DNA from: Candidatus Woesebacteria bacterium UBA5941
GTDB taxonomy: Bacteria; Patescibacteriota; Microgenomatia; UBA8517
DNA: 64,000 nucleotides
Direction: 5' to 3'
Assembly: GCA_002430735.1 (NCBI GenBank)
Contig: DJCV01000003.1
Coordinates: 21,142 to 85,141, forward strand
Shown: piece after piece, positions 5,214 through 57,829 of the stretch
How positions within the stretch are numbered: the first letter of the stretch is position 1
How the letters are laid out: each line of letters starts with the position of its first letter
Translations under genes and position numbers: made by a program
Notes under the pieces: model-generated
What the model was told of the DNA's origin: nothing
Database searches by the model: none
Seen by the model: only the letters and a program-made list of their open reading frames with translations

Positions 5214-5215
5214 AA

Positions 5216-5800: not shown

Positions 5801-5826
5801 AAAATTTTCTACAAGGGCAGGCAGAT

Positions 5827-7490: not shown

Positions 7491-7543
7491 GTTGAGTAAA
7501 ATTTCAGCTCAAATAGTCTAGACTATTTAGCTTTTGGCTGTCA

Positions 7544-8778: not shown

Positions 8779-9215
8779 AAATCAAGAGTAATCGTTACTG
8801 GGCCATCAAGACTCGTCGTTATTGCCATATAGTTTCCAAAACTTCCTGTTTCAACTACTAAGTCTTTTCGTAATTCGGCAATTAGTAATTCATACAATTC
8901 TCGTGCACGTTTCGGTTCTTCTGCTTCTAAAAATGATGGGCGATTTCCATCTTTTGTATTTGCCAACAATGTGAATTGAGACACGACGAGTAGCGGTAAT
9001 GAGAGGTCTTTTGAAGAGAATGCCATTTTTCCAGAATCATCATCATGTAATCTGATCTTCTTTAATTTGTCTGCAAGCGTGCGAACTTTCTGCTCAGTAT
9101 CACCCTTTGCAATTCCCACTAAAATAAACAGCCCTCTTTCAATTGAACCTACCACTGCATCCGATTCAACCGCTCGCACACTTGCTGATTTCACGCGTTG
9201 GATAACTACCTTCAT
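8775..9215 (-). CDS. dtd: D-aminoacyl-tRNA deacylase
   Basis: MKVVIQRV... SQFTL motif; ORF-track 5' extension (to 9317) runs into RNase P RNA, so start assigned to ATG at 9213-9215. Confidence 0.85.
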   Translation of the reverse strand: MKVVIQRVKSASVRAVESDAVVGSIERGLFILVGIAKGDTEQKVRTLADKLKKIRLHDDDSGKMAFSSKDLSLPLLVVSQFTLLANTKDGNRPSFLEAEEPKRARELYELLIAELRKDLVVETGSFGNYMAITTSLDGPVTITLDL

Positions 9216-9238
9216 GTAAGCGTATTGTACCAAACACA

Positions 9239-9262
9239 GAAAAACCCCACCGGTGAGGTGAG
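9239..9262 (-). terminator. intrinsic terminator at 3' end of RNase P RNA
   Basis: Minus-strand RNA CCUCACC-ucacc-GGUGGGG (7-bp stem incl. one G-U) followed by UUUUU. Confidence 0.45.
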
Positions 9263-9590
9263 GTCTCTCATGTGGGAGGTGTGTAAGCCAGGTTCTGTTT
9301 TTCGTGTGTAAACACACAATCGGTAATCATCTATCTAAGCCCTGAGCTTCTGAGCGATTCGGGAAAGAGACCGTACTTTAACGCTCAAATCGCAGGTTGC
9401 AGCGGGGGGGATTGCCCTTTTCACCCTCTATCTTGAGTTAACAAGCGAGTTGTAGTCTCTGTTGCTCTAACCAGCGGTTACCCGTCTTAGGACTGAACCT
9501 AAGCACCCTCTCTTTCAGCTGCCTGGACTTTCCTCCACGTAAACGTGGTGATTACCCATCCTCCACTGGTAGTATACCACAAGACGGTGA
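9240..9590 (-). ncRNA. rnpB: RNase P RNA (bacterial type A-like); ends approximate
   Basis: Minus strand contains universal P4 strands GGAGGAAAGUCCAGGC (plus 9521-9536) and ACAGAACCUGGCUUACA (plus 9283-9299), plus GGGUGAAAAGGG (J11/12-like) between them; no protein ORF. Confidence 0.75.
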
Positions 9591-9597
9591 CTATAGG

Positions 9598-10578
9598 CTA
9601 ATCCTTGTGGGTCGGATACAATTCTTGAAGAAAAACCATTGCTGTTAATACTATTGGGATGGAAAGCACTGCGCCGACAACTCCTGCGATTTTAAATCCA
9701 ATGATCAATGCAAGAAGCGAGATAATTGGGTTAACACCTGCTGACTTTTGCATGATTTTAGGAACTAATACATATGATTCCACTTGCTGTACTAAAAAGG
9801 CTAATGCAATCACCGCCATTCCAGTGACCGGTGAAACGCTAAAACCAACGATTGTTGCGGGAAGCGCCGCTATAATAGGCCCCAAATTCGGAACTGCTTC
9901 TAAAATTCCTGCGAGAATGGAAAGTGGTAATGCATATGGAATACCCAATACGGTGAACCCAACAAAGTTAGCCAATCCAACGATAAACATTAACAAAAAC
10001 TGTCCTCTCGCCCATCCACCTAGTCGCACTTCAAGCTTTGCCATTATTCGATCAAGCATCTCAATATGATGCTGTGCGACATATGGATCAATTTGTTTAG
10101 TCAAATCTTTTCTCGCAAGGGAAAAGTACAGCCCAAATAAAAACACGGAAACAATTGCAAGAATATTTGAAAATACAGCGACGGTAATTGAAAGTATTTG
10201 GGTTGGAAGTTTACCTAATTGAGAGGTGAGTTCTTTTGTTGTTTCATCAATCACAAAAGCCGGCACATGAAGGTCCGCTAAATACTTCGGAATTGCATTC
10301 GCAAAACTCGCTGTTTGCTCAACAAGTAATGGCACCATACCTGCGAGGGTGAATACAATCAGTGCAATTACACACGCATACACGATTAACACAGATGCAG
10401 CTCTTGGAATATGGGATTTCTCAAGTTTGGTAACAGTCGGATTCAAAACAAGCATGATCAGAAGCGCTACGAAGAGCTGCAAGACAATGTCGCTAATTGT
10501 GTATAAAAACCACAGCCCAATAAGGAATAAGACAGTAAAAATAATCGTTTTGTGAGAAATTTCAATTTTTCTGCTCAT
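9598..10578 (-). CDS. AI-2E family transporter (PerM/YhhT-like, UPF0118)
   Basis: 326 aa, 8 predicted TM helices, characteristic architecture and conserved G/P-rich loop region. Confidence 0.8.
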   Translation of the reverse strand: MSRKIEISHKTIIFTVLFLIGLWFLYTISDIVLQLFVALLIMLVLNPTVTKLEKSHIPRAASVLIVYACVIALIVFTLAGMVPLLVEQTASFANAIPKYLADLHVPAFVIDETTKELTSQLGKLPTQILSITVAVFSNILAIVSVFLFGLYFSLARKDLTKQIDPYVAQHHIEMLDRIMAKLEVRLGGWARGQFLLMFIVGLANFVGFTVLGIPYALPLSILAGILEAVPNLGPIIAALPATIVGFSVSPVTGMAVIALAFLVQQVESYVLVPKIMQKSAGVNPIISLLALIIGFKIAGVVGAVLSIPIVLTAMVFLQELYPTHKD

Positions 10579-11477
10579 GCGTTATTGTGCCATCTTTCAA
10601 CTGTTTCTGCCACTTTTGTTTTGCAAAGAGGGTCTGTTATATCGACCCACTGGACCAGTGATTCTTTTTTAAACCAGGTTAACTGGCGTTTTACGTACTG
10701 CATTTCAGAAAGTGTCCATTGACGAATCAATTCTTCCTTTGTTATTTCTTTCTGAATGAACGCACGCATTTCTTTATATCCGGTTGCAGTGAAAGCTTGA
10801 CTTGAAAAGTCGTTCTTTTGAGAAAGCAGGGATTGTACCTCTTCTTCAAATCCGTCAGAAATTCTTCGTAAGACAGCAGCATAAATTCTTGATTCAAGTA
10901 CCTCTTTTGGGGCAGAGAGGCCGATAACAAGTGGGTCATATCCTATGGAATCTGACTGAGGGACTGATCCAAATTCCGAGATTTCAATTGCGCGTATGAG
11001 TCGTGCGGGGTTTTTTCTATCAGATTCATTGAGCGCAAGCGCTTTTTTCTTATTACTCCGCATAAGTCGTACAAGCAAATCATTTACAGACAGTACGGAT
11101 AGCACTTTTCTGAGTGCTTCATTCTGGGGAATTGATGCTGTTTCAATAGGATGGAGTAGCGATCTCACGTAAAAACCCGTGCCGCCTACAACTATTGGAA
11201 GCTTCTGGTTCTGTATGATTTCTGCAATTTTCTTAGTCGCGAATGAGTGAAAGTGCGAAACAGAAAAGGATTCGTCAGGCGAAACAAGATCATACCCATG
11301 AATCGCAATTTCAGAAGAGTACAGTTTTCCTGTTCCAATATCCATACCACGGTAGACTTGCCTTGAATCTGCAGAGATTAGTTCTCCATTAAATGTTTTT
11401 GCAAGATCGATGGCGAGTGCACTTTTTCCAGTTGCTGTCGGACCGACTATAAATAGTACTTTATTTTTTAAGCTCAT
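10575..11477 (-). CDS. miaA: tRNA dimethylallyltransferase
   Basis: N-terminal P-loop GPTATGKS and ...ISADSRQVYRGMDIGTGK typical of MiaA. Confidence 0.9.
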   Translation of the reverse strand: MSLKNKVLFIVGPTATGKSALAIDLAKTFNGELISADSRQVYRGMDIGTGKLYSSEIAIHGYDLVSPDESFSVSHFHSFATKKIAEIIQNQKLPIVVGGTGFYVRSLLHPIETASIPQNEALRKVLSVLSVNDLLVRLMRSNKKKALALNESDRKNPARLIRAIEISEFGSVPQSDSIGYDPLVIGLSAPKEVLESRIYAAVLRRISDGFEEEVQSLLSQKNDFSSQAFTATGYKEMRAFIQKEITKEELIRQWTLSEMQYVKRQLTWFKKESLVQWVDITDPLCKTKVAETVERWHNNA

Positions 11478-16651: not shown

Positions 16652-16725
16652 CGGGGTATAGTTTAACGGCAGAATGGGCGCATGGGGTGCGTCCGGTCCA
16701 GGTTCAATTCCTGGTACCCCGACCA
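16652..16725 (+). tRNA. tRNA-Pro (anticodon GGG), CCA encoded
   Basis: Hand-folded cloverleaf: acceptor CGGGGUA/UACCCCG, D-arm with GG, anticodon stem GGCGC/GCGUC with loop AUGGGGU (U33, GGG, G37), T-arm CCAGG-UUCAAUU-CCUGG, discriminator A + CCA. Confidence 0.85.
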
Positions 16726-27109: not shown

Positions 27110-28393
27110 CTACTTTAAGTACTTGTCGTACTTATTCATGATCATTTGGCTTTCAATATTGCGGACCAATTCAAGGACGACTGAAACAACGATTAAAATA
27201 CTCGTTCCACCGATAGCTAATGTCGTTGTACCCACCGCATTTTGGAAGAGTGATGGAAGGACTGCGATGAGACCCAAAAAGGCTGCTCCTGCCATCGTAA
27301 TTCGATTTAAGACGTACCGCAGGTACTTTTCTGTATGATCACCAGGTCGAACGCCTGGAATGAACCCACCGCTCTTCTTCAGGTTCTCCGCGATTTTTTC
27401 AGGATTAAAGACTACTGAAGTATAAAAATAGGTAAATGCGACCACTAAGGTAAAGTACAAGACGTTATATACGACAGACTGTGGATTAAACAACTGTGTG
27501 AGACCAACTGCAATACTTGCGAGTTGCTGATTTCCAGATCCAGAAAGGAACTGTGAAATGAGAGTAGGCAGAAGCACTAATGACACAGCGAAGATAATAG
27601 GAATAACCCCGGCCTGGTTAACTCTAAGCGGAATGTATGAACGATCTCCGCCAATAAATTCCTTTGCACGTCGAGAATAATGAATTGGAATCTGGCGCAT
27701 TGCTTCATTAATAAAGACAACCATTCCAATGATAAGGAGTGAAACTACTAAGAAAATACCAATTTTAACCGTATCTTCAGGACGCAATGTTGTATAGGTT
27801 TGGTTAATGAGAGAAGGGAATCGTGCGATAATACCGGCGAAAATTAAAAATGAAACACCGTTTCCAAGACCATATTCAGTGATTAACTCCCCAATCCAGA
27901 CGGTAAAGAGGGTTCCTGCTGTCATGGTTACGACTAACGTTATAAGTCCCAGTGGACTCAAATCAGGAAGTACTCCTGTATTTTTCAAAAGTGCGTACAT
28001 TCCAAATGCCTGAAATACAGCTAAGGGAAGTGTTAAGAACCGCGTGTATTGGTTAAGTTTTTCTTGGCCGAATTCACCTTCTTTTGATAATTCCTCAAGA
28101 GATGGGATAACAAATGACATAAGCTGAATCACGATTGATGCGTTGATATAAGGGTTTAATCCAAGCGCCAAAATTGAAAAGTTCGCAAGCGTTCCACCTG
28201 AAAAGATATCAAGGAGTGAGAAGAATGCGTTTCCGGAAAGGAGTGATCCAAAGGATTCGCGATCAATTCCGATTGCAGGGATGTGTGCAGCAAGTCTAAA
28301 TACAACGATAATCCCAGCCGTTATGAGAAGTTTTCGACGTACCTCACGGATTTGGACTGCTCTTCTAAAGAAAGAAAAAATACTTGTCAGCAT
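27110..28393 (-). CDS. secY: preprotein translocase subunit SecY
   Basis: 427 aa, 10 TM, canonical position after rplO. Confidence 0.95.
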
Positions 28394-28824
28394 TAGGCAA
28401 TTGTACCACCAGCTTTGGTGACAGCTTCACTCACAGACTTTGATGCAGCAACATGGAGCACATATTTATTGGTAACTTCGCCAATTCCAACGATCTTTGC
28501 ACCACGACCTTTGTCTTTTTTATTGACAAATCCGTGTTGAATAAGCGTATCAATTGTGACATCCCCCGCTGGGATCAAATTAAGCTTTGCAATTGAAACC
28601 GATGTAGGTTTTGCTTGTGCTTTAAAACGTTGCTTTCCAGGAAGCATCGGAAGTCGGTGTAACAAAGATTTCTTTGTCTTTACACCTTCAAAGAGAATAC
28701 CAACTGTGTATCGAGCCTTTTGTCCTTTTTGCCCACGACCGGTTGTGTGGAATCCTTTTCCACTTCCAACTCCGCGTCCGACGCGTTTTTTACTTTTGGT
28801 GACTACTTTTAATTGGTTATACAT
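28393..28824 (-). CDS. rplO: 50S ribosomal protein L15
   Basis: ...[25 protein letters not shown]. Confidence 0.9.
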
Positions 28825-29323
28825 TTGGTTGTCGTCTTTCTTGTAATTTAGTTAATTTTTCAATTGCCTTAATTGTTGCATATACATTTGTGATTTTGTT
28901 GTTTGTTCCAAGGGTCTTTCCAACAGCATCTTTGATTCCAGCAAGTTCTAGTACAACTCGAACAGTTCCTCCTGCGATAATACCGGATCCTGGAGGTGCT
29001 GGTTTCAACATGATTTTAGAAGCACCATATTTGATTCGAACTTCGTAAGGAATCGTGTTTCCTCGTGTTGGGACAACGATCATATGCTTTTTAGCGTTTG
29101 TTACTGCTTTTTGAATTGCACTTCGAACATCTTTCGCCTTTGCAATTGCTGCTCCAACCTTACCATTTCGATCCCCGACAACAACGAGTGCTGAGAATCG
29201 CATTTGGTTTCCACCTTTTGTCTTTTTAGAAACTCGATTTACTTCAACGACTTTCTCATCAAATTCTTTTTGGTATCCACCGTATTGATTATTGTTTTGG
29301 TTTCCTTGGTTATTGTTATACAT
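28817..29323 (-). CDS. rpsE: 30S ribosomal protein S5 with N/Q-rich N-terminal extension; directly followed by rplO (no L30 gene)
   Basis: S5 dsRBD + C-domain; N-terminus MYNNNQGNQNNNQYGGYQ. Confidence 0.9.
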   Translation of the reverse strand: MYNNNQGNQNNNQYGGYQKEFDEKVVEVNRVSKKTKGGNQMRFSALVVVGDRNGKVGAAIAKAKDVRSAIQKAVTNAKKHMIVVPTRGNTIPYEVRIKYGASKIMLKPAPPGSGIIAGGTVRVVLELAGIKDAVGKTLGTNNKITNVYATIKAIEKLTKLQERRQPNV

Positions 29324-43862: not shown

Positions 43863-43910
43863 AAATATGGGCTATTTTGGCCGATTATTGATTTATGGTA
43901 CTGTGTGCTA

Positions 43911-44342
43911 ATGAAAGTAAAGATAAAACGATTCGACTCGTCACTCCCCATTCCTGCATATCAAACCAATGGGGCTGCAGGCTTTGACTGCTATGCGCGA
44001 GAAACAATAGTAATTCCAACGCATACAATCGCATACATCCCCCTCAACATTGGTCTTGAGATTCCAGAGGATTGTTGGGTACTTGTTGCAGCGCGCGGAT
44101 CGACGCACAAAATGGGAATTATGCCAATTAATGGGATTGGTGTTGGAGATTGGGATTTTTGCGGGGATAACGACGAGTATAAATTTGCCGTTTATAACTT
44201 TACCGATAATGAAGTAACCATTGAAAAAGGAACACGTGTCGCTCAGATGATTATTATGAAATATGAACAAGTTGAGCTTACTGAGGTAGACCACTTTGAA
44301 CACAAAGACCGCGGGGCATTTGGTAGTACTGGGAAAAAATAG
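43911..44342 (+). CDS. dut: dUTP diphosphatase
   Basis: MKVKIKRF...AAGFDCYA (dUTPase motifs)...RGSTHKMGI; ATG at 43911 (ORF-track start at 43905 is GTG). Confidence 0.85.
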   Translation: MKVKIKRFDSSLPIPAYQTNGAAGFDCYARETIVIPTHTIAYIPLNIGLEIPEDCWVLVAARGSTHKMGIMPINGIGVGDWDFCGDNDEYKFAVYNFTDNEVTIEKGTRVAQMIIMKYEQVELTEVDHFEHKDRGAFGSTGKK

Positions 44343-44343
44343 G

Positions 44344-44385
44344 CAAAAAAATCCCCCGCCAAACACTGGTCGAGGGACAACGATG
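44344..44385 (-). terminator. intrinsic terminator of the rpsL-rpsG transcript/3' element (overlaps dut stop on opposite strand)
   Basis: Minus RNA CCCUCG...CGGGGG stem followed by AUUUUUUUGCC. Confidence 0.5.
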
Positions 44386-44593
44386 GATCAGAGAAACATG
44401 CGGGCGGTGTGTACAAGACGTTGGTCATTAGACTAGCTGAATAGACAAGCTATCCCAACCGCGGTCCCCGCATTCTGATCAGACTTGCCAGTCATCAGAT
44501 GAACGCTTTCCAAGTCCAAAAAAGCGTCAGACTAGATGTAGTGTACTTGATAAAAGCAAAAATGGAGAGAAGAAAAATAAAACTTTTAGGTAT
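44386..44593 (-). ncRNA. candidate structured RNA element / long 3' UTR after rpsG containing 16S rRNA-like islands
   Basis: Minus strand: ...CUGAUCAGAAUGC...CCGCGGU...(hairpin insert)...CUUGUACACACCGCCCG, co-linear with 16S h43/h28/decoding-site segment; no ORF; several stable hairpins. Confidence 0.3.
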
Positions 44594-45073
44594 TTACCAC
44601 TTAAAGTGAGCAAATGCTTTGTTTGCTTCAGCGACTTTTTCGACGTCTTGCTTCTTTTTCACTGCAGGACCTTCGTTTTTAAGTGCGTCTAAAATTTCAG
44701 CTGCTAATTTTTCAGCAAATGTGTGGTATTCGGAGTTACTTCGTGACCGTGCTGCTTCAATAAGCCATCGAACACCTAATGAATCTTGGCGTCGTCCTCG
44801 AACTTGAACGGGAACTTGATAGGCAGCTCCACCGATTCGTCGAGCACGAACTTCCATAACGGGTCGAATGTTGTTTAAAGCTCGTGTGTATACAACAACT
44901 GCATCTTCGCCTGTTTTTTCAGCAATAAGCTTTAAGGCGTCATATACTTCGCGCTGAGCCACGCTTTTCTTTCCATCATACATTGCGCGATTTATAAGTT
45001 TCGCGATCATTACGTTGTTGTATACGGCGTCTCCGTTTACTTTACGTGGTCTAACAGCTCCTGGTCTTGGCAT
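44594..45073 (-). CDS. rpsG: 30S ribosomal protein S7
   Basis: 159 aa S7. Confidence 0.95.
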   Translation of the reverse strand: MPRPGAVRPRKVNGDAVYNNVMIAKLINRAMYDGKKSVAQREVYDALKLIAEKTGEDAVVVYTRALNNIRPVMEVRARRIGGAAYQVPVQVRGRRQDSLGVRWLIEAARSRSNSEYHTFAEKLAAEILDALKNEGPAVKKKQDVEKVAEANKAFAHFKW

Positions 45074-45080
45074 ATATTAA

Positions 45081-45503
45081 TTAAGCAGCTTGTGCTGATC
45101 CTTTCTTGGTTCCGTACTTAGATCGTCCGTTTACTCGTCCGACGACCCCTTTAGTATCATATTTTCCTCGTACAACCTTATACTTTACTCCAGCTAAATC
45201 TTTCACACGTCCGCTTCTGACAAGCACAATTCCGTGCTCAGCGAGATCATGTCCTTCACCTGGAATATATGCAGTTACTTCCATTTTGTTTGAAAGTCTG
45301 ACGCGAGCAACTTTTCGCAAAGCTGAATTAGGTTTTCGAGGAGTCATTGTTCGGACAGACAAGATCACTCCTCGTTTGAATGGAGAAGTGACCGTGCTAT
45401 AACGTCGTTTTTTGGAATTAAACCACTGCTTAATTGCTGTACTGCGAGCTTTCGCTTTCGTAGTTGTTCTTCCTTTTTTGACCAGTTGTGCGATTGTTGG
45501 CAT
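45081..45503 (-). CDS. rpsL: 30S ribosomal protein S12
   Basis: [12 protein letters not shown]... Confidence 0.95.
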
Positions 45504-45513
45504 TTTTTGTCTC

Positions 45514-48500
45514 TTATACCATCATCCGTGCGCGTTCAGGGTCTACAGGAATGAGGCGTCCGATGATAACATTTTCTTTGAGTCCAATCAAACGGTCTCG
45601 CTTACCCATCAATGCACTTGTGGCCAAAACGTCAGTTGTCTGTTCGAATGATGCTGCTGACAACCAGCTCTCGGTGAGCAATGCGCGCTTTGTGATTCCC
45701 ATAATGGTTGGTCGTGCAGTTGCTGCTTCCCCACCTTGAGCAATCGTCTTTTCGTTCTCTTCGTCAAAGCTTGCTTTATCAACTGTCTCACCTGGCAAGA
45801 GTGGTGTGCTTCCACCTGTCGCGATCTTCACCTTGTCGCTCATCTTTCGAACGATAACTTCAAAGTGACGGTCGTTAATTGGAATTCCTTGTGATTCGTA
45901 TACTGCTTGTAACTCATTCAACAGATATTCTTGAGCTGGGATTAAGCCTCGAATTGCGAGTACTTCCTTCACATCCAAGTATCCAGATGAGAGTTGAGCA
46001 CCAGCTTCAACGAGTTGTCCATCTTCAACCATGAGCTTACTTGTCTTTGGAATCACAAATTCTCGTGTCTCTTGTGGCTTCACATTTACTGATTCAATAA
46101 TGACTTTCCAACCGTCTTCAAGTTCTTCAACCTTAACCTTACCTGCGATGTCAGTTAATGGTGCCATGCTCTTTGGAATACGTGCTTCAAAGAGTTCCTC
46201 TACTCGAGGCAAACCTTGGGTCACGTCGACTCCAACCACACCGGCTGCGTGCTTAGTTCGGAGCGTAAGCTGTGTTCCTGGTTCTCCAATTGATTGAGCA
46301 GTTAATACTCCAACTGGTGTTCCCATCTCAGCAATTTGCTTGTTTGAGAGATCCCATCCGTAACATGCTGCACACATTCCGTATCGGCTTTCACAACTTA
46401 ATGGTGATCTCACAAATACTGATGGAATTTCAGCTTGATCAATTTCCTTAGCTGCTGGCTCATCGATAATCGTTCCCTTAGCTACAATTACTTTTCCATC
46501 CTTGGTTGTAATATCCTCGAGTGAAATTCGACCTGCGATTCGTCGAGCATATACATTGGTTCGGAAGTTTCGAGTAATCGTAATACCTTCAGTTGTTCCA
46601 CAATCTTCTTCTCGAATGATCACATCATGAGCTACGTCAACGAGTCGTCGAGTTAAGTATCCAGCATCAGCTGTCTTAAGCGCGGTATCAGTCAATCCTT
46701 TTCGAGATCCACGAGAGCTTGTTACGTATTCAAATACTGAGAGTCCTTCTCGGAAGTTACTCTTAATAGGCAATTCAACGATCTTTCCGAGTGGATCAAC
46801 AACGAGTCCTCGCATACCAGCGATCTGTTTGATCTGATCTCGTGATGTACGTCCAACTTTAGCGTCAATAACGATTCTGATTGAGCTAGTTGGGTCTACT
46901 AAGTCCCATGTCTTGTCAGCAATTTCTTCAGTTGTTTCAATCCAAACTGCTTCACTCAATCGTTTCTTTTCTTCCTTCGTGATCAACCCTTCGGCAAAAG
47001 TTGTTTCGATTTCAGCAACTTTTTGGTTAGCAATATCAATCATCTTAGATTTCTCAGGGTGAACTACTGCGTCTGAAATTCCGAATGAAAGCCCTGAATA
47101 AGTTCCTCCAACGAATCCAATATCTTTAATATCATCAATCATTTGAATTACTCGATCATGAGGGACTTTAGTAAATCCTGTCATAATAAGATCCTGGATA
47201 AGACCTGAAACCATGCTCTCATTCACAAATCCAAATTCAGCTGGGAGCACTTCATTAAAGAGAATTCGTCCTACAGTTGTTTCAATAATGTCAGTTCCAA
47301 GTTTGACCTTGATTAATTGTCTTAAGAACAACTTTCCTGTTTGATAAGCAAAGATTGCTTCGTTTTTATCAGAATAGATCGTGCTACCAGCCTCAATTCG
47401 AGGGTCTACGCTTGTGTAGTAGTACACTCCCAATGCAATTTCCTTAGATGAAGGAGCACTGGTTGGTGATCCGTCAGCAGGCTTCAACAAGTTTCGATCT
47501 GAAATAACTCTCTCTTTAACTTCTTTGATTGCGCGCTCAGAGAGTGGCAAGTGCACAGCCATTTGGTCTCCATCGAAGTCAGCTCCGAATGCTTTACATA
47601 CTGCAGGGTGCAATCGAATAGCGCTTCCTTCAATTAAGATTGGATAGAATGCTTGGATACCGAGCTTGTGCAATGTAGGAGCACGGTTGAGTAACACTGG
47701 GTGATTCTTTGTAATCTCTTCCAAGATGTCAAAGACTTCACTTGGTCGTCGTTCCAAAAGGTTCTTCGCACTCTTCACATTTGGTGCAATTCCTCGAACA
47801 ATCATTTCTCGAAGCACGAATGGCTTAAAGATCTCAAGTGCCATTTCCTTCGGAAGTCCACATTGATTAAGCTTCAATTCTGGTCCTACAACGATAACTG
47901 ATCGTCCAGAGTAGTCAACACGCTTACCCAATAAGTTCTGTCGGAATCGTCCTTGCTTCCCTTTCAACATGTCTGAAAGTGATCGTAATGGTTGCTTTCC
48001 GCGTCCTCGTCGAGTTGCTTTTCGTTGAGAGGCGTCAATCAAAGAGTCAACAGATTCCTGCAACATTCGTTTTTCATTTCTCAAAATGATTTCAGGAGCT
48101 CCAAGATTAATTAAGTGCTTTAATCGGTTATTGCGATTAATAACACGTCGGTATAAGTCGTTTAAGTCGCTTGTTGCGAAACGTCCTCCTGAAAGTTGCA
48201 CCATCGGTCGCAAATCTGGTGGCAAGATTGGAAGAACCTTCATAACGGTCCATGTTGGAGAAACGTGTCCTGATCGCATACCGTCAACCAACTTCAATCG
48301 GCGAGTTAATTTAATGTATCGGCTACCTTTTCCTTTGACCGCATCGATTTCTTCTTTGATCTCCTTAGAGAGGTCATCAAGTTTCAATGCTGCGAGTGCT
48401 TCATAAATAGCTTCTGCACCCATCTTGACGTCTACGAATGATTCAACTCCGTAAGAGCTGAGTTTGTCGAATTCATCTTCTGACAAGAATCCAAATTTTC

Positions 48501-51500
48501 GAACGTCTTTGACAATTCCAATAAGCTTTCCGAATAGTTCTTCAGTCTTCTCGAGAGTTACTTTCTCTTCTTCAGAAAGGCTTGCTTCTTTCTTTCGAGT
48601 TTCGAGCTCAACTTCAGAAAGGGCGAGTGCTAATTGTTCTTGACCTTTAATCTTCTCTTCAGCTTTCTTTCGTCGAACTTCACCATCTTCTTTAACGAGC
48701 GCAAGTCGTTCTTTGTAGAGCTCTTTCACTTCGTCAACTTTCTCTCCTCGTGATTTTTCAAGTGTCTTAATAGCTTCAGTTCGGCCTGCTTCATCAACAT
48801 TCATCACAAGGTATCGAGCGAAGTACACAACTTGCTCAATTGCACGAGGTGCGAGATCCAAAAGGAGAGATACCTTTGAAGGTGCCCCTTTAAAGAACCA
48901 TACGTGCATAACAGGTGCTGCCAAGCTAATGTGTCCCATGCGTTCTCGTCGAACACGAGACTCAGTTACTTCAACTCCACATTTGTCACAAACAACTCCC
49001 TTATATCGAATTCTCTTGTATTTTCCACAATAACATTCCCAATCCTTTGAAGGTCCGAAGATTCGTTCGTCAAAGAGACCATCTTTTTCACTCTTTAATG
49101 TTCGATAGTTAATAGTCTCAGGCTTTGTAACTTCTCCACGGCTCCATGCACGAATTTCTTCAGGTGAAGCGAGTTTGATTCTCAATCCTCCAAAGTCTTC
49201 TAAGTTTGAAAGCAGAGAGAGCGGATCAACGAGTTCTGCTTTTTTGTCAGTCAATTTTTCAACGATATCTTCTCCTGCTTCGTTTTTAGGTTGAGCATTT
49301 TCGATTTGGATAGAAAGTCCCAATGAATTCAATTCTCGAATTAATACTTTAAAGCTTTCAGGTACTTTTGCTTCAGGAATTGGTTCACCTTTCACAATTG
49401 CACCAAATGCTTGTGCACGTCCTACGATATCGTCGGACTTAATAGTCAACATTTCTTGTAATGTATGTGCAGCTCTGTGTGATTCTAATGCCCAGACTTC
49501 CATTTCTCCCAATCGTTGTCCACCCATTTGAGCTTTTCCTCCAAGAGGTTGTTGTGTCACGAGTGAGTATGGTCCAGTTGATCGAGCGTGAGTCTTATCC
49601 TCAATCATGTGCTTCAGCTTCAAGATGTATCCAATTCCAACAACAGTGTCTTCAGCAAATTGTTCTCCTGTTCGTCCATCAAAGAGTCTAATTTTTCCAC
49701 TTCGTGGAAGTCCAGCGTTTTCAAGTTCTTGAGAGATGACATCATCATCCATGTTGTCAAATACTGGAAGTGCTCCCTTTTCTCCATTCGCAGAGAGTGC
49801 CCAACCCAAATGTGCTTCCATAAGTTGTCCCAAGTTCATACGTGCGAGAACTGAGAGTGGAGAAATAATAATATCTACAGGTGTTCCATCTGGAAGATAT
49901 GGCATGTCTGCAGCATTCATGACTTTAGCAATAACACCTTTGTTTCCGTGTCGTCCGGCGAGTTTGTCTCCAACCATGACTTTTCGGATTTGTGCAACTT
50001 TAACGATAATCGTCTTCATAACACCAGGCCCAAGCTCGTCGCCACCTTCTTTGTCCAAGACTTGGACATCAACAACGATTCCTTCTTCTCCGTGAGGTAC
50101 TCGAAGTGAGGTGTCTCGAACTTCTCGTGCTTTCTCTCCAAAGATTGCGCGGAGCAATCTTTCTTCAGCATTTAATTCTGTTTCTCCTTTTGGAGCAATT
50201 TTTCCAACCAAAATGTCGTTTGGTCCAACTTCTGCACCAAGTACAACAACTCCGTCTTCAGCGAGGTTTGCAAGTTCCATTTCAGAAACGTTTGGAATAT
50301 CGCGAGTCAATTCCTCAGGCCCAAGCTTTGTTTCAACGAGGTCAGCTTGATATTCCTTAATGTGGATCGAAGTTAACAAATCATCCTTGACGAGTCTGTC
50401 TGACACAATCAAGGCGTCTTCAAATCCGTATCCTTCGAATGAAGCGTAAGCGACTACTAAGTTTGTTCCGAGCGCGAGTTCTCCTTCTTCAGCAGAAGGT
50501 CCATCAATTAAAAGGTCTCCTTTTTTAACTTTTTGTCCAACGACAACTCGAGCTTTTTGGTTGTATGAAGTTGATTGTGTTGTTCTCTTGAACTTTGTAA
50601 GTCTGTAAATAGCTCGTTCTCCGTCTTCAGCCATTTCAACAGCACTTCGAACTGGTTTTACTTGCTTTTTATCAAGTCGGACTTCGATTCGGTTTCCATC
50701 TACGTAATCAACAACTCCGTCGAAATCGCTTGTAACAACATGTCCCATTGACTCAGCAATTGCACCTTCCATACCAGTTCCAACGATTGGACTTTGAGGA
50801 GCAACAAGCGGAACAGCCTGACATTGCATGTTAGATCCCATAAGCGCTCGATTACCTTCGTCGTGAGCGAGGAATGGAATAAGAGATGCTGATGCACCGA
50901 ACACTTGTCGAGGAGTTACGTCAATGTAATCAATAACGTCTGATGGTCCTTCGAGGAAGGCGTCATTAAATCGGTATGGAACTCGATCGTCCATAACAAT
51001 TCCTTCTTCGTTTACCGTCACGCCACTGTGAGTGATGTGATATTTAGCATCATCATCTGCGGTAAGATAGGTTACTTCGTCTAATACTTTCACTACTGTC
51101 TTACCACCTTTTTCTGTCTTTTCTACTTTTCGGTATGGAGCTTCTAAGAAACCGAATTCATTAATTCGTGTGTAGAGAGCCAAATAGGTAACAAGTCCGA
51201 TGTTTGGTCCTTCAGGAGATCTGACTGGGTCAATACGACCATATTGAGACGCATTAATGTCTCGAATAGAGAAGCTTGCTCGTTCACGGTTAATACCACC
51301 AGGTCCAAGCACTGAGACGCGGCGCAAGTTATCAACCTCAGAAAGAGGGTTTGTGTTATCTAAAATAGTAGATAACTGATTGCTTCGGAAAAATTCATTA
51401 ATTGATGCAATCAATGGTCGAGCATTAATTAAGTTTTGTGGAAGTGGTTTGTCTTCAGGTGCAATCAAGCTCATCTTTTCTTTCACTGATCTCTCAAGTT

Positions 51501-52527
51501 TCAACAAACCTGCCCGGAACGCATGAGTTGCCACTAATTCTCCCACTCGTCGAAGTCTTCGATTGCTTAAGTGATCAATATCATCAACGTGTCCGTGTCC
51601 GTTTTGAAGTCCAATAAGGTATGAAATGGTTGCCAAAATATCTTGCTTGGTGAGTACCCAATTTTCTCGTTCGTTCGCAACTGTTAAATCAAGTCGTTTG
51701 TTGATCTTGTATCGGCCAACTTTTCCTAAGTCATACCGTCGGGTATCTAAGAACAAGCTTTCAAAGAGAGCTTGAGCGTTATCAATAATGGCTGGTTCCC
51801 CAGGTCGGAGCTTTCGATAGATTTCCAAAAGAGCTTCGTCTTGAGTCTTTGTTGGGTCTTTTTCAATGGTCTTTTTAATGAATCGGTGGTTTTTGTCAGT
51901 ATCAATTTCTGAGAAAGCTTCTTGAATTTCTTGATCGCTTTCAATTCCCATTGCACGAAGAAGGGTAGTTGCAGAAACTTTTCGTCGCTTATCAATTCGA
52001 GCTGAGATTACATCGTTCTTGCTGATTTCGAATTCGAGCCATGATCCATGAAGTGGTCGAACTTCAGCCATGTAAAGCATTCGTCCAGTTGCACGATCTC
52101 GTGCACCAGAGAAGTAAATACCAGGTGATCGAACGAGCTGGTTAATAACTGCGCGTTCAATTCCGTTAATGATGAATGTTCCGGCAGTTGTCATTTGTGG
52201 GATATTTCCCATAAAGACTTCCTGTTCGACTGATTCACCAGTCTTCATGTTGATTAATGTAGCGACTAATTTAAATGGAGCAGCAAAAGTAATACCTTTT
52301 TCTTCTGCATACTTTGGAGTGATTTGTGGTTCTTCTAATGTGTGGCTGCCTAAAAGCAATTGCCAATTTTTTCCTGTAAAGTCGTTAATTGGAGAAACCT
52401 GTGCAATTTCCTCTGCAATTCCTTCATTTAAAAACCAATCCCAGCTTTCTCTTTGTACGAGAGATAAATCAAGTTCTGGTAGGTTTTTCTCTGTTTTTCC
52501 GAAATTGCGTCGTTGGGTTTTTGCCAT
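45514..52527 (-). CDS. rpoBC: fused DNA-directed RNA polymerase beta-beta' (RpoB-RpoC) polypeptide, 2337 aa
   Basis: N-terminus matches beta; C-terminal half matches beta' (Zn finger [35 protein letters not shown] catalytic loop); no stop at junction (~49180-49310). Confidence 0.9.
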
Positions 52528-52584
52528 TTGGTGAATAGATTTTAGGAATACTAAAGTGAGCTTGTCTCAGTACGCCTAACGGCG

Positions 52585-52612
52585 ATTATACCTGCATATC
52601 ATGTAAAGTCAA
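52585..52612 (-). promoter_or_regulatory. sigma70-like promoter for rpoBC
   Basis: Minus strand TTGACT (52607-52612) - 16 nt - TATAAT (52585-52590), ~55 nt upstream of ATG 52527. Confidence 0.5.
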
Positions 52613-52800
52613 CACCCGATTGAGGGGCAATAATATACCGGAAGCTTCAGTTCCTTTGGACACTATACCAGAAAAAATTCGTGAGCGCAAATAGGTAGAA
52701 ATTGATTGGGATGATGTTATATCACCATCCAGCCTCATTACCTAGTAATTCGACACTTTCAACCCGTGCATATACTATAAACGAGTGGAGCTACTGTAGC

Positions 52801-53796
52801 TTATCGAAGATATTTTTGCACATTAGCGTTGTGCTCCTCTAATGTCGTTGCATACCGGGCAACACCTGTTGTGTCATGAATATAGAATAAATAATTACTT
52901 TCAGTAGGATTTAAAACTGCTTGCAAGCTTGCGAGGCCTGGGCTTGCAATTGGAGCAGGTGGCAATCCCGGAATAGTGTATGTATTGAAATTACTTTTTA
53001 ATTTGTAGTCTTCCAAATACACCGTTGGCCACCAGTCTGCACATTCTCCTTTTGCGTCTGGGCACGAAAGATTTGCCTTTGCATATTGCACCGTTGCATC
53101 AACTTGTAGTGGCATTCCAATTTCAATTCGATTTCGAAGAATCCCTGCAATTATCGGCTTTTCACTATCATTCCGTGTTTCCCGCTCAACCAGAGATGCA
53201 AGTGTGACCAATTCATCAAGATTCGCCCCAGCGTTCTCAGTGCCAAACTTCTTCTGAAAGGTATTCTTCAATACAGAGATTGCACGTGCGGGAGTAACAT
53301 CTTTTGGTATTAAGTATGTTTCAGGAAATAAATATCCCTCATCTGATTTAGAAAGTGACAAAAATTGCTCTCTAAATGCTACTTTTTCCGCCTCGCTGTA
53401 TCCAAGTGCATTGCTGAACCGGTCGGGTAATTGCTCTCGACGTAATCCTTCCGGAATTGTTACCCACACTTCTTGTGGTCCTTTCAATAAATGCGCTATC
53501 ACTTGCGGTACTGTTAGGTTTGCAGGGATGGAAAACTGTCCAACTGGCAGACTTGCTGCCTGGTTGGTAAATCGAACATACAACCGAAATACAAGTTCAT
53601 TTTTAATCACTCCCGCATCATGAAGTTTTTTTGCGATTGATTCAGCAGAACTTCCTTTGGTAATTAAAACAGACTGTGTTTTGTTGCTTGTTGAAGGTGC
53701 TTTCAAGCCATTCGTCCACCAAATAAATCCTCCTACTGAAAGGGCAGCACCAATGAGGGCTACGAGTAAAAAAGTGATGATGAGGAATTTCTTCAC
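52801..53796 (-). CDS. mltG: endolytic murein transglycosylase MltG (YceG family)
   Basis: N-terminal TM, YceG-like domain (...LVERETRNDSEKPIIAGILRNRIEIGMPLQVDATVQY...). Confidence 0.85.
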   Translation of the reverse strand: MKKFLIITFLLVALIGAALSVGGFIWWTNGLKAPSTSNKTQSVLITKGSSAESIAKKLHDAGVIKNELVFRLYVRFTNQAASLPVGQFSIPANLTVPQVIAHLLKGPQEVWVTIPEGLRREQLPDRFSNALGYSEAEKVAFREQFLSLSKSDEGYLFPETYLIPKDVTPARAISVLKNTFQKKFGTENAGANLDELVTLASLVERETRNDSEKPIIAGILRNRIEIGMPLQVDATVQYAKANLSCPDAKGECADWWPTVYLEDYKLKSNFNTYTIPGLPPAPIASPGLASLQAVLNPTESNYLFYIHDTTGVARYATTLEEHNANVQKYLR

Positions 53797-53825
53797 AGAA
53801 TTATTGTAACAAAAGGCCGAAGATT

Positions 53826-54020
53826 TTATTTAACCTCGGTGAGAAGTGCACGGCGGTACGTTTTACCATTGTGCATGTAGATGCGTCCACATTTGCATGT
53901 CACTTGGGTTCCACCTTTTACCTTCGTTTTTTTGGCTTTAGTAAGAGGCATGCTGCAACCGACACATCGGCCTTGGGACAGAAGCCATGCTTGGATTGGT
54001 GCAATTGCATTCTTAATCAT
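53826..54020 (-). CDS. small zinc-ribbon hypothetical protein
   Basis: 64 aa with CVGC...CKCG. Confidence 0.35.
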   Translation of the reverse strand: MIKNAIAPIQAWLLSQGRCVGCSMPLTKAKKTKVKGGTQVTCKCGRIYMHNGKTYRRALLTEVK

Positions 54021-54097
54021 TGAAACAGTATACCAAATGGATTTTCCTCTGAGTACCTAGTAAATAGATGTTTGTGGCTATTATTCCTGCTATAGGC

Positions 54098-54126
54098 TTT
54101 ACACAAGAGAACTATAGGAGTATAAT
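54098..54126 (+). promoter_or_regulatory. sigma70-like promoter positioned for leaderless mRNA
   Basis: TTTACA (54098-54103) - 17 nt - TATAAT (54121-54126), 6 nt before ATG 54133. Confidence 0.45.
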
Positions 54127-54132
54127 GCCGCA

Positions 54133-54597
54133 ATGCAAAAAACAATTGTCATCAGTGTTACACAGACGCTGTCAATTCTCCTCTGTATTATTGGAGCGCT
54201 CCTGTGGGGACATATTATCCTATTTGATTCTGTGAATACCCCAACTCTTGGGAAAGAAGCACACAACATTTTACATTTCACGATCGACAAAGATCATCCG
54301 CGAGTATCAGGATTACAGGTGCCTATTTTTCCGGGTAAAAAATATGCATGGAGTACGTATGCGATAGCCAGTGAAGGAGAAGGCGAATTTGGGTTTTACA
54401 TTGACGAATATGACGCAAACGGAGTCTGGGTAAGTGGACAATGGAAAGGTGCAATTACTGCAACCCAAGAAGGAATTCTTACCTACGAATATGTTCCCAG
54501 TAATGACCACGTGCAATTTGCGGCGCCACAATATTATGTAACACCAAATACATCATTTGAAGTGCTCGTTGATTCACCGTCTATTCGAGAGCGATAA
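54133..54597 (+). CDS. hypothetical membrane-anchored protein
   Basis: 154 aa, N-terminal TM helix, no recognised motifs. Confidence 0.4.
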   Translation: MQKTIVISVTQTLSILLCIIGALLWGHIILFDSVNTPTLGKEAHNILHFTIDKDHPRVSGLQVPIFPGKKYAWSTYAIASEGEGEFGFYIDEYDANGVWVSGQWKGAITATQEGILTYEYVPSNDHVQFAAPQYYVTPNTSFEVLVDSPSIRER

Positions 54598-54603
54598 CAC
54601 CGC

Positions 54604-54984
54604 TTATTTGTCGAGGTACTTCTGGAGAATAACAGCGGCTGCAAATGCGTCCTCCATTTCTTTACGCTTTTTGCGCTTCATATTGCTATGAATAGCCATT
54701 TCTTGCGCATCATGCGTCGAGAGCGTTTCGTCTACAAATACAACGGGAATTCGAGTAACTAATGAGAGCTCTTCGCCAAATCTCTTGGCTTCTGAGGCGA
54801 TTTCGTTTTCTGACAACCCCACAACTAATTCATCAGGACGTTCATTATCAATAACCGTTAACGCCTGTTTCAAGAGTGCTGCATAATTTTCACCCTTTAA
54901 CACTTTTAGTGGCTCGGCGAGAGAACCCAACGACAATGCAACCCCAACCTTTTTTCTTCCGTAATCAAAACTAATAAATATCAT
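54604..54984 (-). CDS. ruvX: Holliday junction resolvase-like YqgF/RuvX
   Basis: FDYGRKKVGVA...VDETLST motifs. Confidence 0.85.
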   Translation of the reverse strand: MIFISFDYGRKKVGVALSLGSLAEPLKVLKGENYAALLKQALTVIDNERPDELVVGLSENEIASEAKRFGEELSLVTRIPVVFVDETLSTHDAQEMAIHSNMKRKKRKEMEDAFAAAVILQKYLDK

Positions 54985-55637
54985 AAGCTTAATGTTTTTT
55001 CTTCGGGCGGCACCAGTTTAGCACGGACCACTAAGCGTCTTGGTCTGCGTGGGTCACCAGGCGGCACACAGGTAATAAGCGAGATATATGACATTCCTGT
55101 ATCTTGGGCTAACACTTCTAATTGATCCGGGTTTACTTCAAACATGTCATCAACTCGATATTCGTATGAGATCCCATCGTATTGAACCGTGATCATATCT
55201 TTCTTCTTGAGTGAGGGAAGTGTTGAAAAAATAGTCAGATATACTTTTGGATCATAAAAAGACGGGAGTACTGAATGGCCAAAGACAACTGTGTTCCCAA
55301 TTTTTCCCGGGAGTGCAGTCCCTGGATACTGAATTAGTGAATCAGCGAGATCTTCTCCTCCAATAGTAACAACGGCATCTTTGATGCCCAACTTTGGGAC
55401 TGATATGTTGTAATACTTAACGACTGAGCTGCTCGTTAATTCTTCTGCGCTTGGGAACCAGGTCTTCACTTTCGTAAAATCCATCAGTTCTTGCTCTGGA
55501 ACGGGGGACAGGTATTGTTTAAAGTTTGCCTTACTTTTTATTTCATAGGAAAGGAGCGGAAATATGACGGCCAAAATGCAAACCCCGCCGGTAATTGCGA
55601 GAAATAAACTGAGTAATTTAATTGCGGACTTCTTCAT
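54981..55637 (-). CDS. sortase family transpeptidase
   Basis: N-terminal TM, VVFGHS (His) and LITCVP (TLxTC Cys) motifs. Confidence 0.8.
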   Translation of the reverse strand: MKKSAIKLLSLFLAITGGVCILAVIFPLLSYEIKSKANFKQYLSPVPEQELMDFTKVKTWFPSAEELTSSSVVKYYNISVPKLGIKDAVVTIGGEDLADSLIQYPGTALPGKIGNTVVFGHSVLPSFYDPKVYLTIFSTLPSLKKKDMITVQYDGISYEYRVDDMFEVNPDQLEVLAQDTGMSYISLITCVPPGDPRRPRRLVVRAKLVPPEEKTLSL

Positions 55638-57829
55638 TTTTCTGCTTCTATACTAACCTCAATTCGCTGAGCCACAAACGGCACAAAACGAATAGGATCA
55701 GGAAGAGCAGGATTAATCGTTATTGCAGCTCGTACGAATCCAGGAATTGTTCCCAGATAATTATTTGCAGTCGCGAATCGTTTTCCAGAGACAGCTCGTG
55801 CGACATCATCTGGATTTACATTTGGAAGGAGGTGTGCGGTTAAGCCTATGTTAGCTGAAATATCCCCACCTTGTCCTTTTTGGATCTCAAAATCAGTTTG
55901 CACTTGTTCTGGCCTAAACGAATACCCTCCGGGCACCTGAGATGTTAACAGTTTCTCTGCAGCCTGTTTAATTGCATCTTTGGGAATCGCATACGCAGTC
56001 GCTTGAATCTCAAGAGACAGGTTTACACTACTTGCCTCATCCCCTGCTTTGTGGTCGAAGACTTTTGTATTGGTTTTAGTGGTTACAGAATCCGGAATAA
56101 AAGAGTAATTCTCTGGCACTTCTCTTACAATTTCTTCTTTTGCCTGCGCAGTGAGTTTTGAAACCGTTGCTTGCTCTAAACTATCTAAGTCTGCTTTGGA
56201 AACAGCGGTAATCTGTCGGCTTGACCCACCAGTGAATGTTTCTGCGACAACGGCATCAATTTCACTGGTTAAAAAGTTCCCCACTTTTAAGGTTTGATCT
56301 TTGGCAAGGTTATAATCTGAGCCAATAGCCGCGGCTGTAGCCGAAAGCGTGATTGTTCCAGGTGACGCAGGAGAAGTTGCAGCTGAGACTGAAGCACTTT
56401 CGTCAAGTGTAAACTTTAAGTCGTTTGCTCCGACAAGAAGCGCACCAGCAGGAAGCTTTACACCATTTGCCGTTCCGTTTCTGATGGTTACGGTCCCTTT
56501 TGCTTTATCTCCAACTGTTTTATTTCCACTTGCAGGAGCTGAGTCTTCACCTGAGACTGTCTTTGTAAAGACCGCAACAGGAAGGACTTTATTATCAATG
56601 TCCACAGTATCAGTTCCTTCTTTGAGTGCAAACGTCTCGTGAGTTGTGAGCGAGCGTGGAGAGATAAAAATAGTGATGTCTGCCTGTGGAAGGAAATACC
56701 ACGCAGCAACAACCCCTCCGAAAATAATCGAGAATCCAAGAAATCCAAAGATTGCGGCAGTCTTTAGGGAAAGCGTTGACCTTCGCTTTGCATGCGGTAC
56801 AACATGAGGTTGCTCGATTGGAAGTGTGTCAAAACTTTTCTTTTTAAATGGAAGTGCACCGATTAATGCCGATGGCTTTTTTATTATTGCGAGCATTTTG
56901 TGCTTCGCCTGGAAGGCTTTTGAGCTGGAAGTTGCGTGAATAGCAGTAGCATGTTCCTCTTCACGAGCAACAGCCTGCGAATGATCTTTTGGATTAATTT
57001 TTGTAATGTCTGCATCAATCGCAAATCCCAAATCATTCAGTGATACGTCTGTTGGAACAATATTCTCTTCTAGCGGCTCTGGTGTTTTTTGAGGTGTTAC
57101 AAAAAGCTTTACTGGTCCCATTTCAGATGAACCGGCAAGACTAATTGCACTTAACAATCGTTCATTTGTCGCGAGTTCAATCTTTGGCTCGTGCAAGAAC
57201 ATAAGTTTGTCGTTTGCATCCTTCCAAGTAACTGATGACAGTAAGTGAGAAATGTCCCCAAGCTCTTCTTTTGAAGCACCATACACGACAAATCGCGACG
57301 GGAGTGCATCGTTTGATTGGAACCGGGTGAGTGCTTCTATTAAGTCTTCGGTCAAGGATACGCTTCGGCCAACTTCAACAGTACCGGCGAGTGTTCCAAG
57401 CCTAAAGAGCGTTACTTCGAGTGTCGTTTTCGCAATTCCGACGACAACAGCGGAAAGCGGACCTCCTTCGTTTTGTTTTACCTCATGAGAAATGGCTTCA
57501 GGAATTACCACAAAGCCCACTGGGGACAAGGATAACTTACTGCAAATCTCACGAATAAGGGCTAGATAGTCTTTTTTAATATGTCCTTCTGTCACCCATC
57601 CAGAGGGCACACCAAATACTGTTTTTGTTGGTTCTCCTGCATCTGAAGGGATTGATGCGGTAGCTTCGGTCAATGAAGTATCAACGGCTTCTATTAGTTC
57701 TGCTTCGTCATTCCATGAAACTTCTGGTCCATAGGAAACGACTGAGGTTTCTTCTTCATCACGACTCCACAAGCACACAGAGGTGATGTGAGAAGTAATT
57801 ATGAGAGACCAGAAATAAGCTTTTGACAT
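55634..57829 (-). CDS. large bitopic membrane protein: N-terminal cytoplasmic actin-like (FtsA/PilM-like?) domain, one TM, large extracytoplasmic S/T/A-rich C-terminal domain
   Basis: 731 aa; TM at ~355-380 (TAAIFGFLGFSIIFGGVVAAWYF); ATGA overlap with sortase start; no LPXTG. Confidence 0.45.
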   Translation of the reverse strand: MSKAYFWSLIITSHITSVCLWSRDEEETSVVSYGPEVSWNDEAELIEAVDTSLTEATASIPSDAGEPTKTVFGVPSGWVTEGHIKKDYLALIREICSKLSLSPVGFVVIPEAISHEVKQNEGGPLSAVVVGIAKTTLEVTLFRLGTLAGTVEVGRSVSLTEDLIEALTRFQSNDALPSRFVVYGASKEELGDISHLLSSVTWKDANDKLMFLHEPKIELATNERLLSAISLAGSSEMGPVKLFVTPQKTPEPLEENIVPTDVSLNDLGFAIDADITKINPKDHSQAVAREEEHATAIHATSSSKAFQAKHKMLAIIKKPSALIGALPFKKKSFDTLPIEQPHVVPHAKRRSTLSLKTAAIFGFLGFSIIFGGVVAAWYFLPQADITIFISPRSLTTHETFALKEGTDTVDIDNKVLPVAVFTKTVSGEDSAPASGNKTVGDKAKGTVTIRNGTANGVKLPAGALLVGANDLKFTLDESASVSAATSPASPGTITLSATAAAIGSDYNLAKDQTLKVGNFLTSEIDAVVAETFTGGSSRQITAVSKADLDSLEQATVSKLTAQAKEEIVREVPENYSFIPDSVTTKTNTKVFDHKAGDEASSVNLSLEIQATAYAIPKDAIKQAAEKLLTSQVPGGYSFRPEQVQTDFEIQKGQGGDISANIGLTAHLLPNVNPDDVARAVSGKRFATANNYLGTIPGFVRAAITINPALPDPIRFVPFVAQRIEVSIEAEK

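Follow-up and report, generated by a model that had tools for sequence, protein, structure and literature searches.

Does the RNA polymerase of a Woesebacteria-like bacterium carry its two largest subunits, β and β′, on a single polypeptide chain? The question is raised by a 64,000-nt stretch of Candidatus Woesebacteria bacterium UBA5941 (assembly GCA_002430735.1, contig DJCV01000003.1, forward-strand positions 21,142 to 85,141), which was analyzed as a whole and is called the window here. In the open reading frame (ORF) listing of the window, rpoB and rpoC appear as one gene, rpoBC, on the minus strand (45514..52527), with an ATG start and 2337 codons plus a stop. The β and β′ subunits of UBA5941 are thus encoded as one continuous 2337-residue ORF, and both modules are complete. 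An open frame of 2337 codons in DNA of 42% GC is not attributable to chance. The gene, its parts, and its candidate promoter are arranged as follows (aa, amino acid position in the fused protein; pLDDT, predicted local distance difference test).

45514..52527, minus strand: rpoBC, with β, linker, and β′ in one ORF (ORF listing, Pfam, NCBIfam, identical DNA in five assemblies).
49300..52527, minus strand: β module, aa 1-1076, complete (Pfam Rpb2_1 to Rpb2_7, NCBIfam PRK00405).
49228..49299, minus strand: linker, variable and acidic, aa 1077-1100 (junction alignment, AlphaFold2 pLDDT).
45517..49227, minus strand: β′ module, aa 1101-2337, complete, with a clade-conserved N-terminal tail at its start (Pfam Rpb1_1, 2, 3, and 5; TIGR02386).
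48967..49035, minus strand: β′ N-terminal zinc-binding element, aa 1165-1187 (read from the sequence; cysteines invariant in the alignment).
48505..48792, minus strand: lineage-specific β′ insertion at the β′In1 site, predicted antiparallel helical hairpin, aa 1246-1341 (AlphaFold2, alignment, Foldseek).
47566..47586, minus strand: catalytic Mg-binding motif, GADFDGD in place of NADFDGD, with Gly as aa 1648 (sequence comparison).
52585..52612, minus strand: sigma-70-like promoter candidate, TTGACT-16 nt-TATAAT (consensus match, 11/12).

Profile searches covered both modules nearly end to end. Pfam placed Rpb2 domains 1 to 7 at aa 65-1076 and Rpb1 domains 1, 2, 3, and 5 at aa 1112-2241. The rpoB model PRK00405 scored 1387 bits against a cutoff of 896, with aa 5-1076 matching profile positions 2-1095 of 1096, and a second rpoB model, TIGR02013, scored 1377 bits (cutoff 801). 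The rpoC model TIGR02386 scored 1470 bits (cutoff 963.5), and aa 1115-2328 matched positions 2-1138 of 1147. The junction DNA at 49198-49299 runs through without a stop or a change of frame. Alignments with solved β′ chains begin at residues 3-8 of those chains, opposite aa 1103-1108 of the fused protein; as the last residue of β is aa 1076, the actual tether comes to about 24 residues. A preliminary description of this DNA had proposed one uninterrupted 2337-aa rpoB-rpoC ORF with a junction at about 49180-49310 that lacks stops and frame changes. Both proposals are borne out, the former by the ORF listing, Pfam, and NCBIfam and the latter by the junction DNA; all of the peptides quoted there match the translation, while the strand (minus) had been left unstated.

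The fused gene is shared by a large group of relatives. In a full-length homology search, relatives with 60-88% identity fell into more than 60 separate clusters at the 90% level, with chains of 2304-2366 aa, all of them fused. They derive from NCBI, JGI, ENA, and Logan assemblies, and each chain contains all of the β and β′ domains. The mean column identity of the fused family is 66% over 53 sequences, and the zinc finger, DFDGD, and other motifs are invariant. In an alignment of 87 fused homologues, the linker was delimited by the β end (...LGLxIxxE) and the clade-conserved β′ N-terminal tail. Its length ranged from almost none to several tens of residues and its sequence was variable and rich in E, D, and K; the junction alignment of these homologues contained neither a stop nor a conserved Met in the linker. 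A segment that varies freely, in frame and without a stop behaves like a translated flexible linker and not like a collapsed intergenic spacer. The short acidic linker that had been described earlier is placed here at aa 1077-1100 (24 residues). An AlphaFold2 model of aa 940-1540, built on a 53-sequence alignment, gave pLDDT values below 50 at aa 1084-1088 and 1090-1099, and the linker is predicted to be disordered.

We therefore put the probability at roughly 90% that rpoBC is a true fusion of rpoB and rpoC, inherited vertically in a Woesebacteria-like Microgenomates bacterium, and that it is translated as a single 2337-residue polypeptide. One mRNA, probably made from a dedicated sigma-70-type promoter before the ATG, would be translated into a single chain consisting of a complete β, a flexible acidic tether of about 24 residues, and a complete β′. 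In solved bacterial RNA polymerases, the β C terminus and the β′ N terminus adjoin in the clamp. As the two termini are neighbors there, a short tether should leave the fold undisturbed. The tether would set the β:β′ ratio at 1:1 and make the association of the two modules intramolecular, and the fused chain would then assemble with the alpha dimer into the core enzyme. The product presumably remains uncleaved, the fused protein is probably the only β and β′ of the cell, and the selective benefit may lie in stoichiometry or assembly. Zakharova et al. reportedly found in 1998/1999 that the Helicobacter pylori fusion is produced as one polypeptide, and Severinov et al. are said to have shown in 1997 that an engineered Escherichia coli β-β′ fusion is functional. 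The H. pylori fusion can be split without lethality. The points on the single chain of H. pylori and on the engineered E. coli fusion are echoed in PMC7483510 and bioRxiv 10.1101/2021.11.05.467461.

Several points weigh against this interpretation. The evidence for the fusion is at the gene level, and cleavage of the linker or a low level of internal initiation may occur. Sixty-four kilobases of the genome are covered, and a second copy of rpoB or rpoC may be located elsewhere. Finally, Gly takes the place of the universally conserved Asn of NADFDGD, a change not expected in a housekeeping enzyme, although seven other fused relatives share it.

Among the alternatives, the one that survives best, though we regard it as improbable, is that the gene is fused and yet two proteins are made from it, either by internal initiation at the β′ start or by proteolysis within the linker. 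Being exposed and predicted to be disordered, the linker should be accessible to proteases. Moreover, the syntenic relative at locus L087 (described below) expresses separate genes with a 4-nt overlap, so that separate subunits work in this lineage. Initiation at β′, on the other hand, would have to do without a conserved Met or start codon, as none is found in the linker or the β′ N-terminal tail across the clade (87-homologue alignment). The window linker contains no in-frame ATG or GTG, and no Shine-Dalgarno-like sequence was found upstream of its single in-frame TTG (aa 1092). A GGAGGA ahead of a TTG was considered as an internal ribosome-binding site and rejected, since the spacing is zero and the hexamer merely encodes a nonconserved Gly-Gly pair (aa 1114-1115). 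The H. pylori precedent is likewise, as reported, a single polypeptide. No solved natural fused chain spanning the junction was found in the PDB. A single translated chain remains our preferred reading.

Considerably less probable is that the fused ORF represents a nonfunctional or accessory paralogue, with the working β and β′ encoded elsewhere. In addition to the 64-kb limit of the view, the active-site motif GADFDGD speaks for it. The Gly at aa 1648 (47584-47586, minus strand) is encoded by GGA, two changes from AAY, and the three Asp residues of the motif (aa 1648-1654) are kept. The replaced Asn is the counterpart of N458 in E. coli β′, which contacts the ribose of the incoming nucleoside triphosphate. 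Gly is also present in seven other fused Woesebacteria-like relatives (P0147, P0169, P0172, P0174, P0175, P0180, and P0182) and was found at this position in none of the other β′ sequences collected, all of which have Asn. In P0122 and P0155, the sisters of the window protein and of P0147, the residue is Asn; the Asn-to-Gly change therefore arose at least three times. A dispensable copy is at odds with the strong full-length conservation of the family and its invariant key motifs (66% mean column identity over 53 sequences) and with the canonical position of the gene beside rpsL-rpsG-fusA. Relatives on contigs of 0.6-0.9 Mb, too, show the same single fused gene. CPR (candidate phyla radiation) genomes measure about 1 Mb, and duplications of this sort are rare in them.

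The junction also proved reproducible between assemblies. An exact-sequence look-up found the identical 2337-aa protein on 11 contigs, of which five were retrieved, and the same protein is present on a contig of 941,966 bp. The 7014-nt gene is identical to that of the window in five assemblies (three JGI metagenomes, ENA ERZ761600, and NCBI GCA_002430615.1), with slightly different flanks. The preliminary description had suggested looking for rpoB-stop-rpoC in relatives; the frame is open in the more than 60 relatives, and differences in the linker are always in frame. A loss of a stop or frameshift between separate rpoB and rpoC genes through faulty assembly or sequencing is therefore next to inconceivable, because the identity of the DNA in five assemblies of several projects and the open frame of more than 60 diverged relatives, with linker length changes always in frame, outweigh the facts that rpoB and rpoC share a frame with one stop between them in many bacteria and that many ENA "proteins" of about 400 aa across the junction stem from frameshift-riddled long-read contigs. 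These junction-spanning ENA proteins had been considered as fused lineages with an alternative genetic code, an idea that was rejected, as the example L086 (ENA ERZ25039550 contig_16945, 3000-10800) is a frameshifted long-read contig from a high-GC organism. There, rpoB and rpoC are split into six ORFs (frames 2, 1, 1, 0, 2, and 2), and one ORF of 397 aa falsely bridges the β/β′ junction. L086 illustrates a route by which spurious "fusion" fragments reach protein databases.

The nearest named relatives of the window protein are the Candidatus Woesebacteria GW2011 entries KKQ95928.1 and KKS97410.1 (75% identity); the entry A0A0G1DHR5 of a relative bears the UniRef label "Multifunctional fusion protein." Entries of candidate division WWE3 (PIS12366.1 and PJC23086.1) are fused as well and show 51% identity. 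Elsewhere in the window, the S5 gene (28817-29323, minus strand) overlaps the L15 gene (28393-28824, minus strand) with no L30 gene between them, and secY follows at 27110-28393. Brown et al. reportedly linked the absence of L30 to CPR in 2015. The possibility raised earlier that the bacterium is CPR-like agrees with both its nearest named relatives and the lack of L30 between S5 and L15. Neighbor-joining trees with bootstraps were calculated from a concatenate of the β C-terminal and β′ N-terminal parts (about 920 columns) and from full β (1040 columns). The Woesebacteria-like clade, which includes the window and is entirely fused, received 100% bootstrap support in both the β-only and the β+β′ trees. 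The fused WWE3 proteins were placed as sister of the Microgenomates (100% support), and all CPR sequences grouped together (95%), with the window clade inside and separated from the Alpha-, Beta-, and Gammaproteobacteria that were sampled. A motif scan of genome contigs mostly returned unrelated phyla (the motifs are universal), which provided the outgroup set, together with the fused CPR locus L027 and five unfused CPR loci.

The idea that every close relative is fused had to be rejected. It resulted from a length bias of the word-indexed search, which was exposed by a query with an unfused β (P0318). This query retrieved separate rpoB genes in more than 100 clusters (1085-1174 aa) from Gottesmanbacteria, Shapirobacteria, Pacebacteria, and other Microgenomates; Saccharibacteria and Nomurabacteria, like the three former groups, are not fused. 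In the β tree, the unfused lineages, together with the fused P0186 at their base and the fused P0184/P0185 beside a Shapirobacteria-like group, form the sister of the Woesebacteria-like group. Two histories would explain this pattern, four independent fusions or a single ancestral one with two or more later fissions, and the neighbor-joining trees are compatible with both. Further fused CPR proteins are those of a Paceibacterota group (L027, P0194, and P0303; linker of about 8 residues), P0202/P0203, and P0188/P0190. These proteins occur intermixed with those of unfused Saccharibacteria, Nomurabacteria, and Parcubacteria. The fusion had been suggested as a lineage marker, which holds insofar as all of the 60+ sampled Woesebacteria-like members are fused; as a character it is homoplastic, however, since WWE3, some Paceibacterota, and other Patescibacteria are also fused. 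The unfused β proteins of Microgenomates (P0453-P0571; Gottesman-, Shapiro-, and Pacebacteria) end in long acidic tails, whose median length beyond PESFKVL is 66 residues. Many of these tails contain a motif resembling KEAxELAxAAGAExV that is absent from the fused proteins.

In a syntenic Microgenomates relative, represented by L087 (GCA_023484305.1 JAMDAL010000034.1, 9040-9100) and L088 (Logan SRR10252151), the genes run yceG-rpoB-rpoC-rpsL-rpsG-fusA. Here β and β′ are encoded separately: rpoB specifies 1140 aa, including an acidic tail of 60 residues, rpoC specifies 1237 aa, and the two genes share 4 nt (ACATGA). In L087, the overlap directly follows an A6 run (GAAGAAAAAACATGAC), and the candidate -1 slippage sequence is GAAGAAAAAACATGA. 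Judged from these letters, the two genes would be fused in frame by a single added A or by slippage of -1 on the run. A broader joint reading can be put forward, albeit tentatively and as an unlikely one: the fusion would have occurred once in the ancestor of Microgenomates and WWE3 and have been undone at least twice (in Gottesman-, Pace-, and Shapirobacteria), fused and split states in CPR would toggle by single-nucleotide changes at the rpoB stop, and the active-site Gly would mark an altered recognition of the substrate sugar. If this were true, the rpoBC architecture would be a labile character that has switched repeatedly in much of bacterial diversity, with at least 19 additional fused lineages still awaiting description.

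Fused proteins were also found beyond the CPR. The preliminary description had held that natural fusions are established only in a few lineages (Helicobacter and Wolbachia). This is correct for the searchable literature, where PMC7483510 names natural fusions for Helicobacteraceae and Wolbachia only, but not for the databases, which hold at least 19 other fused clusters. In an exhaustive 50%-identity library, 22 representatives among the top matches exceeded 2000 aa, and at least 19 had both β and β′ blocks. Six long fused representatives were tested, and by NCBIfam cutoffs they were neither of the Helicobacter nor of the Wolbachia type. A fused β-β′ protein of 2602 aa belongs to Candidatus Ratteibacteria, and one of 3132 aa, which recurs unchanged in about a dozen assemblies (1.5-4.8 Mb), groups with Acidobacteriota. 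Other fused groups comprise proteins of about 2600 aa near Verrucomicrobiota/PVC (Planctomycetes-Verrucomicrobia-Chlamydiae) and several long-branch groups. The fused proteins outside the window clade are among P0201, P0204-P0207, P0189-P0200, and P0303-P0364.

The β′ module contains about 93 extra residues before KMGAEAI in comparison to Firmicutes and Proteobacteria. AlphaFold2 predicted two antiparallel helices of about 46 residues each (aa 1246-1292 and 1296-1341; block-mean pLDDT, 80-91), which substantiates, at the level of a model, the long charged coiled-coil-like insertion that had been described earlier. Actinobacterial β′ chains fill the top 50 Foldseek matches in the PDB and align across the insertion without a break, with 123 residues between the anchors in the window and 115 in Streptomyces. 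In Mycobacterium tuberculosis, β′In1 (β′MtbSI) comprises about 100 residues and forms a 70-Å coiled coil that extends from the clamp and gates the cleft (Lin et al., bioRxiv 10.1101/099606). The window insertion shares the site, a similar length, and the same predicted antiparallel two-helix fold with the actinobacterial element, but shows no detectable sequence similarity to any PDB chain: a phmmer search with the 116 residues of the insert alone against PDB sequences returned nothing at E<=1. The site is also hypervariable, with about 30 residues in Firmicutes and Proteobacteria, 55-101 in other CPR, and 209-428 in Chloroflexi. The insertion is therefore best regarded as an analogue at a known hot spot rather than as an established homologue, and a "DNA gate" function would be an analogy only.

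The gene neighborhood combines conserved and unusual features. In the window, rpoBC is located directly upstream of rpsL-rpsG-fusA, its canonical position, and is uncoupled from the rplKAJL operon; yceG precedes it instead. Upstream (52528-57829) are yceG, a divergent 154-aa ORF, ruvX, a sortase gene, and a gene whose 731-aa product weakly matches Baseplate_J, and this upstream gene order is kept in L087. Downstream (43905-45503 region), the str operon is broken up by two intervening genes on the opposite strand: a dUTPase gene separates rpsG from fusA, and an ORF of about 323 aa separates fusA from tuf. The best promoter-like site in an 8-kb scan (52585-52612, minus strand; TTGACT, 16-nt spacer, TATAAT; 11/12 matches) has its -10 hexamer ending 57 nt upstream of the ATG, and its sequence suggests that it may act as the rpoBC promoter. 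Rfam detected no leader or attenuator upstream of rpoBC and, at the gathering threshold, no leader or riboswitch anywhere in the 64-kb window, including the ribosomal protein operons. A tRNA-Pro gene (GGG; 16652-16725, plus strand) was the sole RNA gene detected in the 64 kb.

Sequences of the fusion entered the public record in 2015 and are annotated automatically in inconsistent ways, with labels that vary between β, β′, hypothetical, and "multifunctional fusion." As no description of an rpoBC fusion in CPR, Patescibacteria, WWE3, or Microgenomates was found in the searchable literature, the present case is a modestly novel addition. With it, natural β-β′ fusions reach beyond the two textbook cases into a large uncultivated clade (Woesebacteria-like Microgenomates, WWE3, and others), and the character is seen to be gained or lost repeatedly. 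Fused genomes are mishandled by automatic annotation and by marker-gene pipelines in which rpoB and rpoC count as two separate genes, each present once. The fused state is a cheap diagnostic character of the Woesebacteria-like clade, and the natural linkers, nearly absent in some proteins and several tens of residues long in others, offer a ready resource for engineering single-chain RNA polymerase cores. The understanding of the RNA polymerase mechanism is unchanged; the interest is for specialists in RNA polymerase and CPR, for annotation, and for phylogenomics.

How does rpoBC compare to the known systems? The window protein reached 2031 bits in six separate stretches with the Helicobacter-type RpoBC model PRK09603 (cutoff, 5372) and 1921 bits with the Wolbachia-type model PRK14844 (cutoff, 4632). 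Because it stays below both of these cutoffs and passes the models for separate rpoB and rpoC, it constitutes an independent fusion of the same architecture, and the independence from Helicobacter and Wolbachia that had been anticipated is further supported by its position within the CPR clade in the trees. The RpoBC of Helicobacter and Wolinella is likewise a natural in-frame joining of a complete β via a short linker to a complete β′; it belongs, however, to Campylobacterota and not to CPR and measures 2890 residues versus 2337, about 550 more, and the window protein lacks the proteobacterial inserts. Wolbachia shares the architecture and is also a bacterium with a reduced genome, but its lineage is alphaproteobacterial, whereas the window clade falls within CPR. 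In Campylobacter, rpoB and rpoC reportedly overlap and remain separate, as attributed to Zakharova et al. in 1999. L087/L088 with their 4-nt overlap resemble this type, a neighboring state that is one indel from fusion, whereas the window genes are fused and not overlapping. The β-β′ tether engineered in E. coli (Severinov et al. 1997) joins the subunits in the same manner and yields an active enzyme, which is the mechanistic basis that we assume for the window protein. That tether is artificial, while the one in the window is natural, clade-wide, and variable in length.

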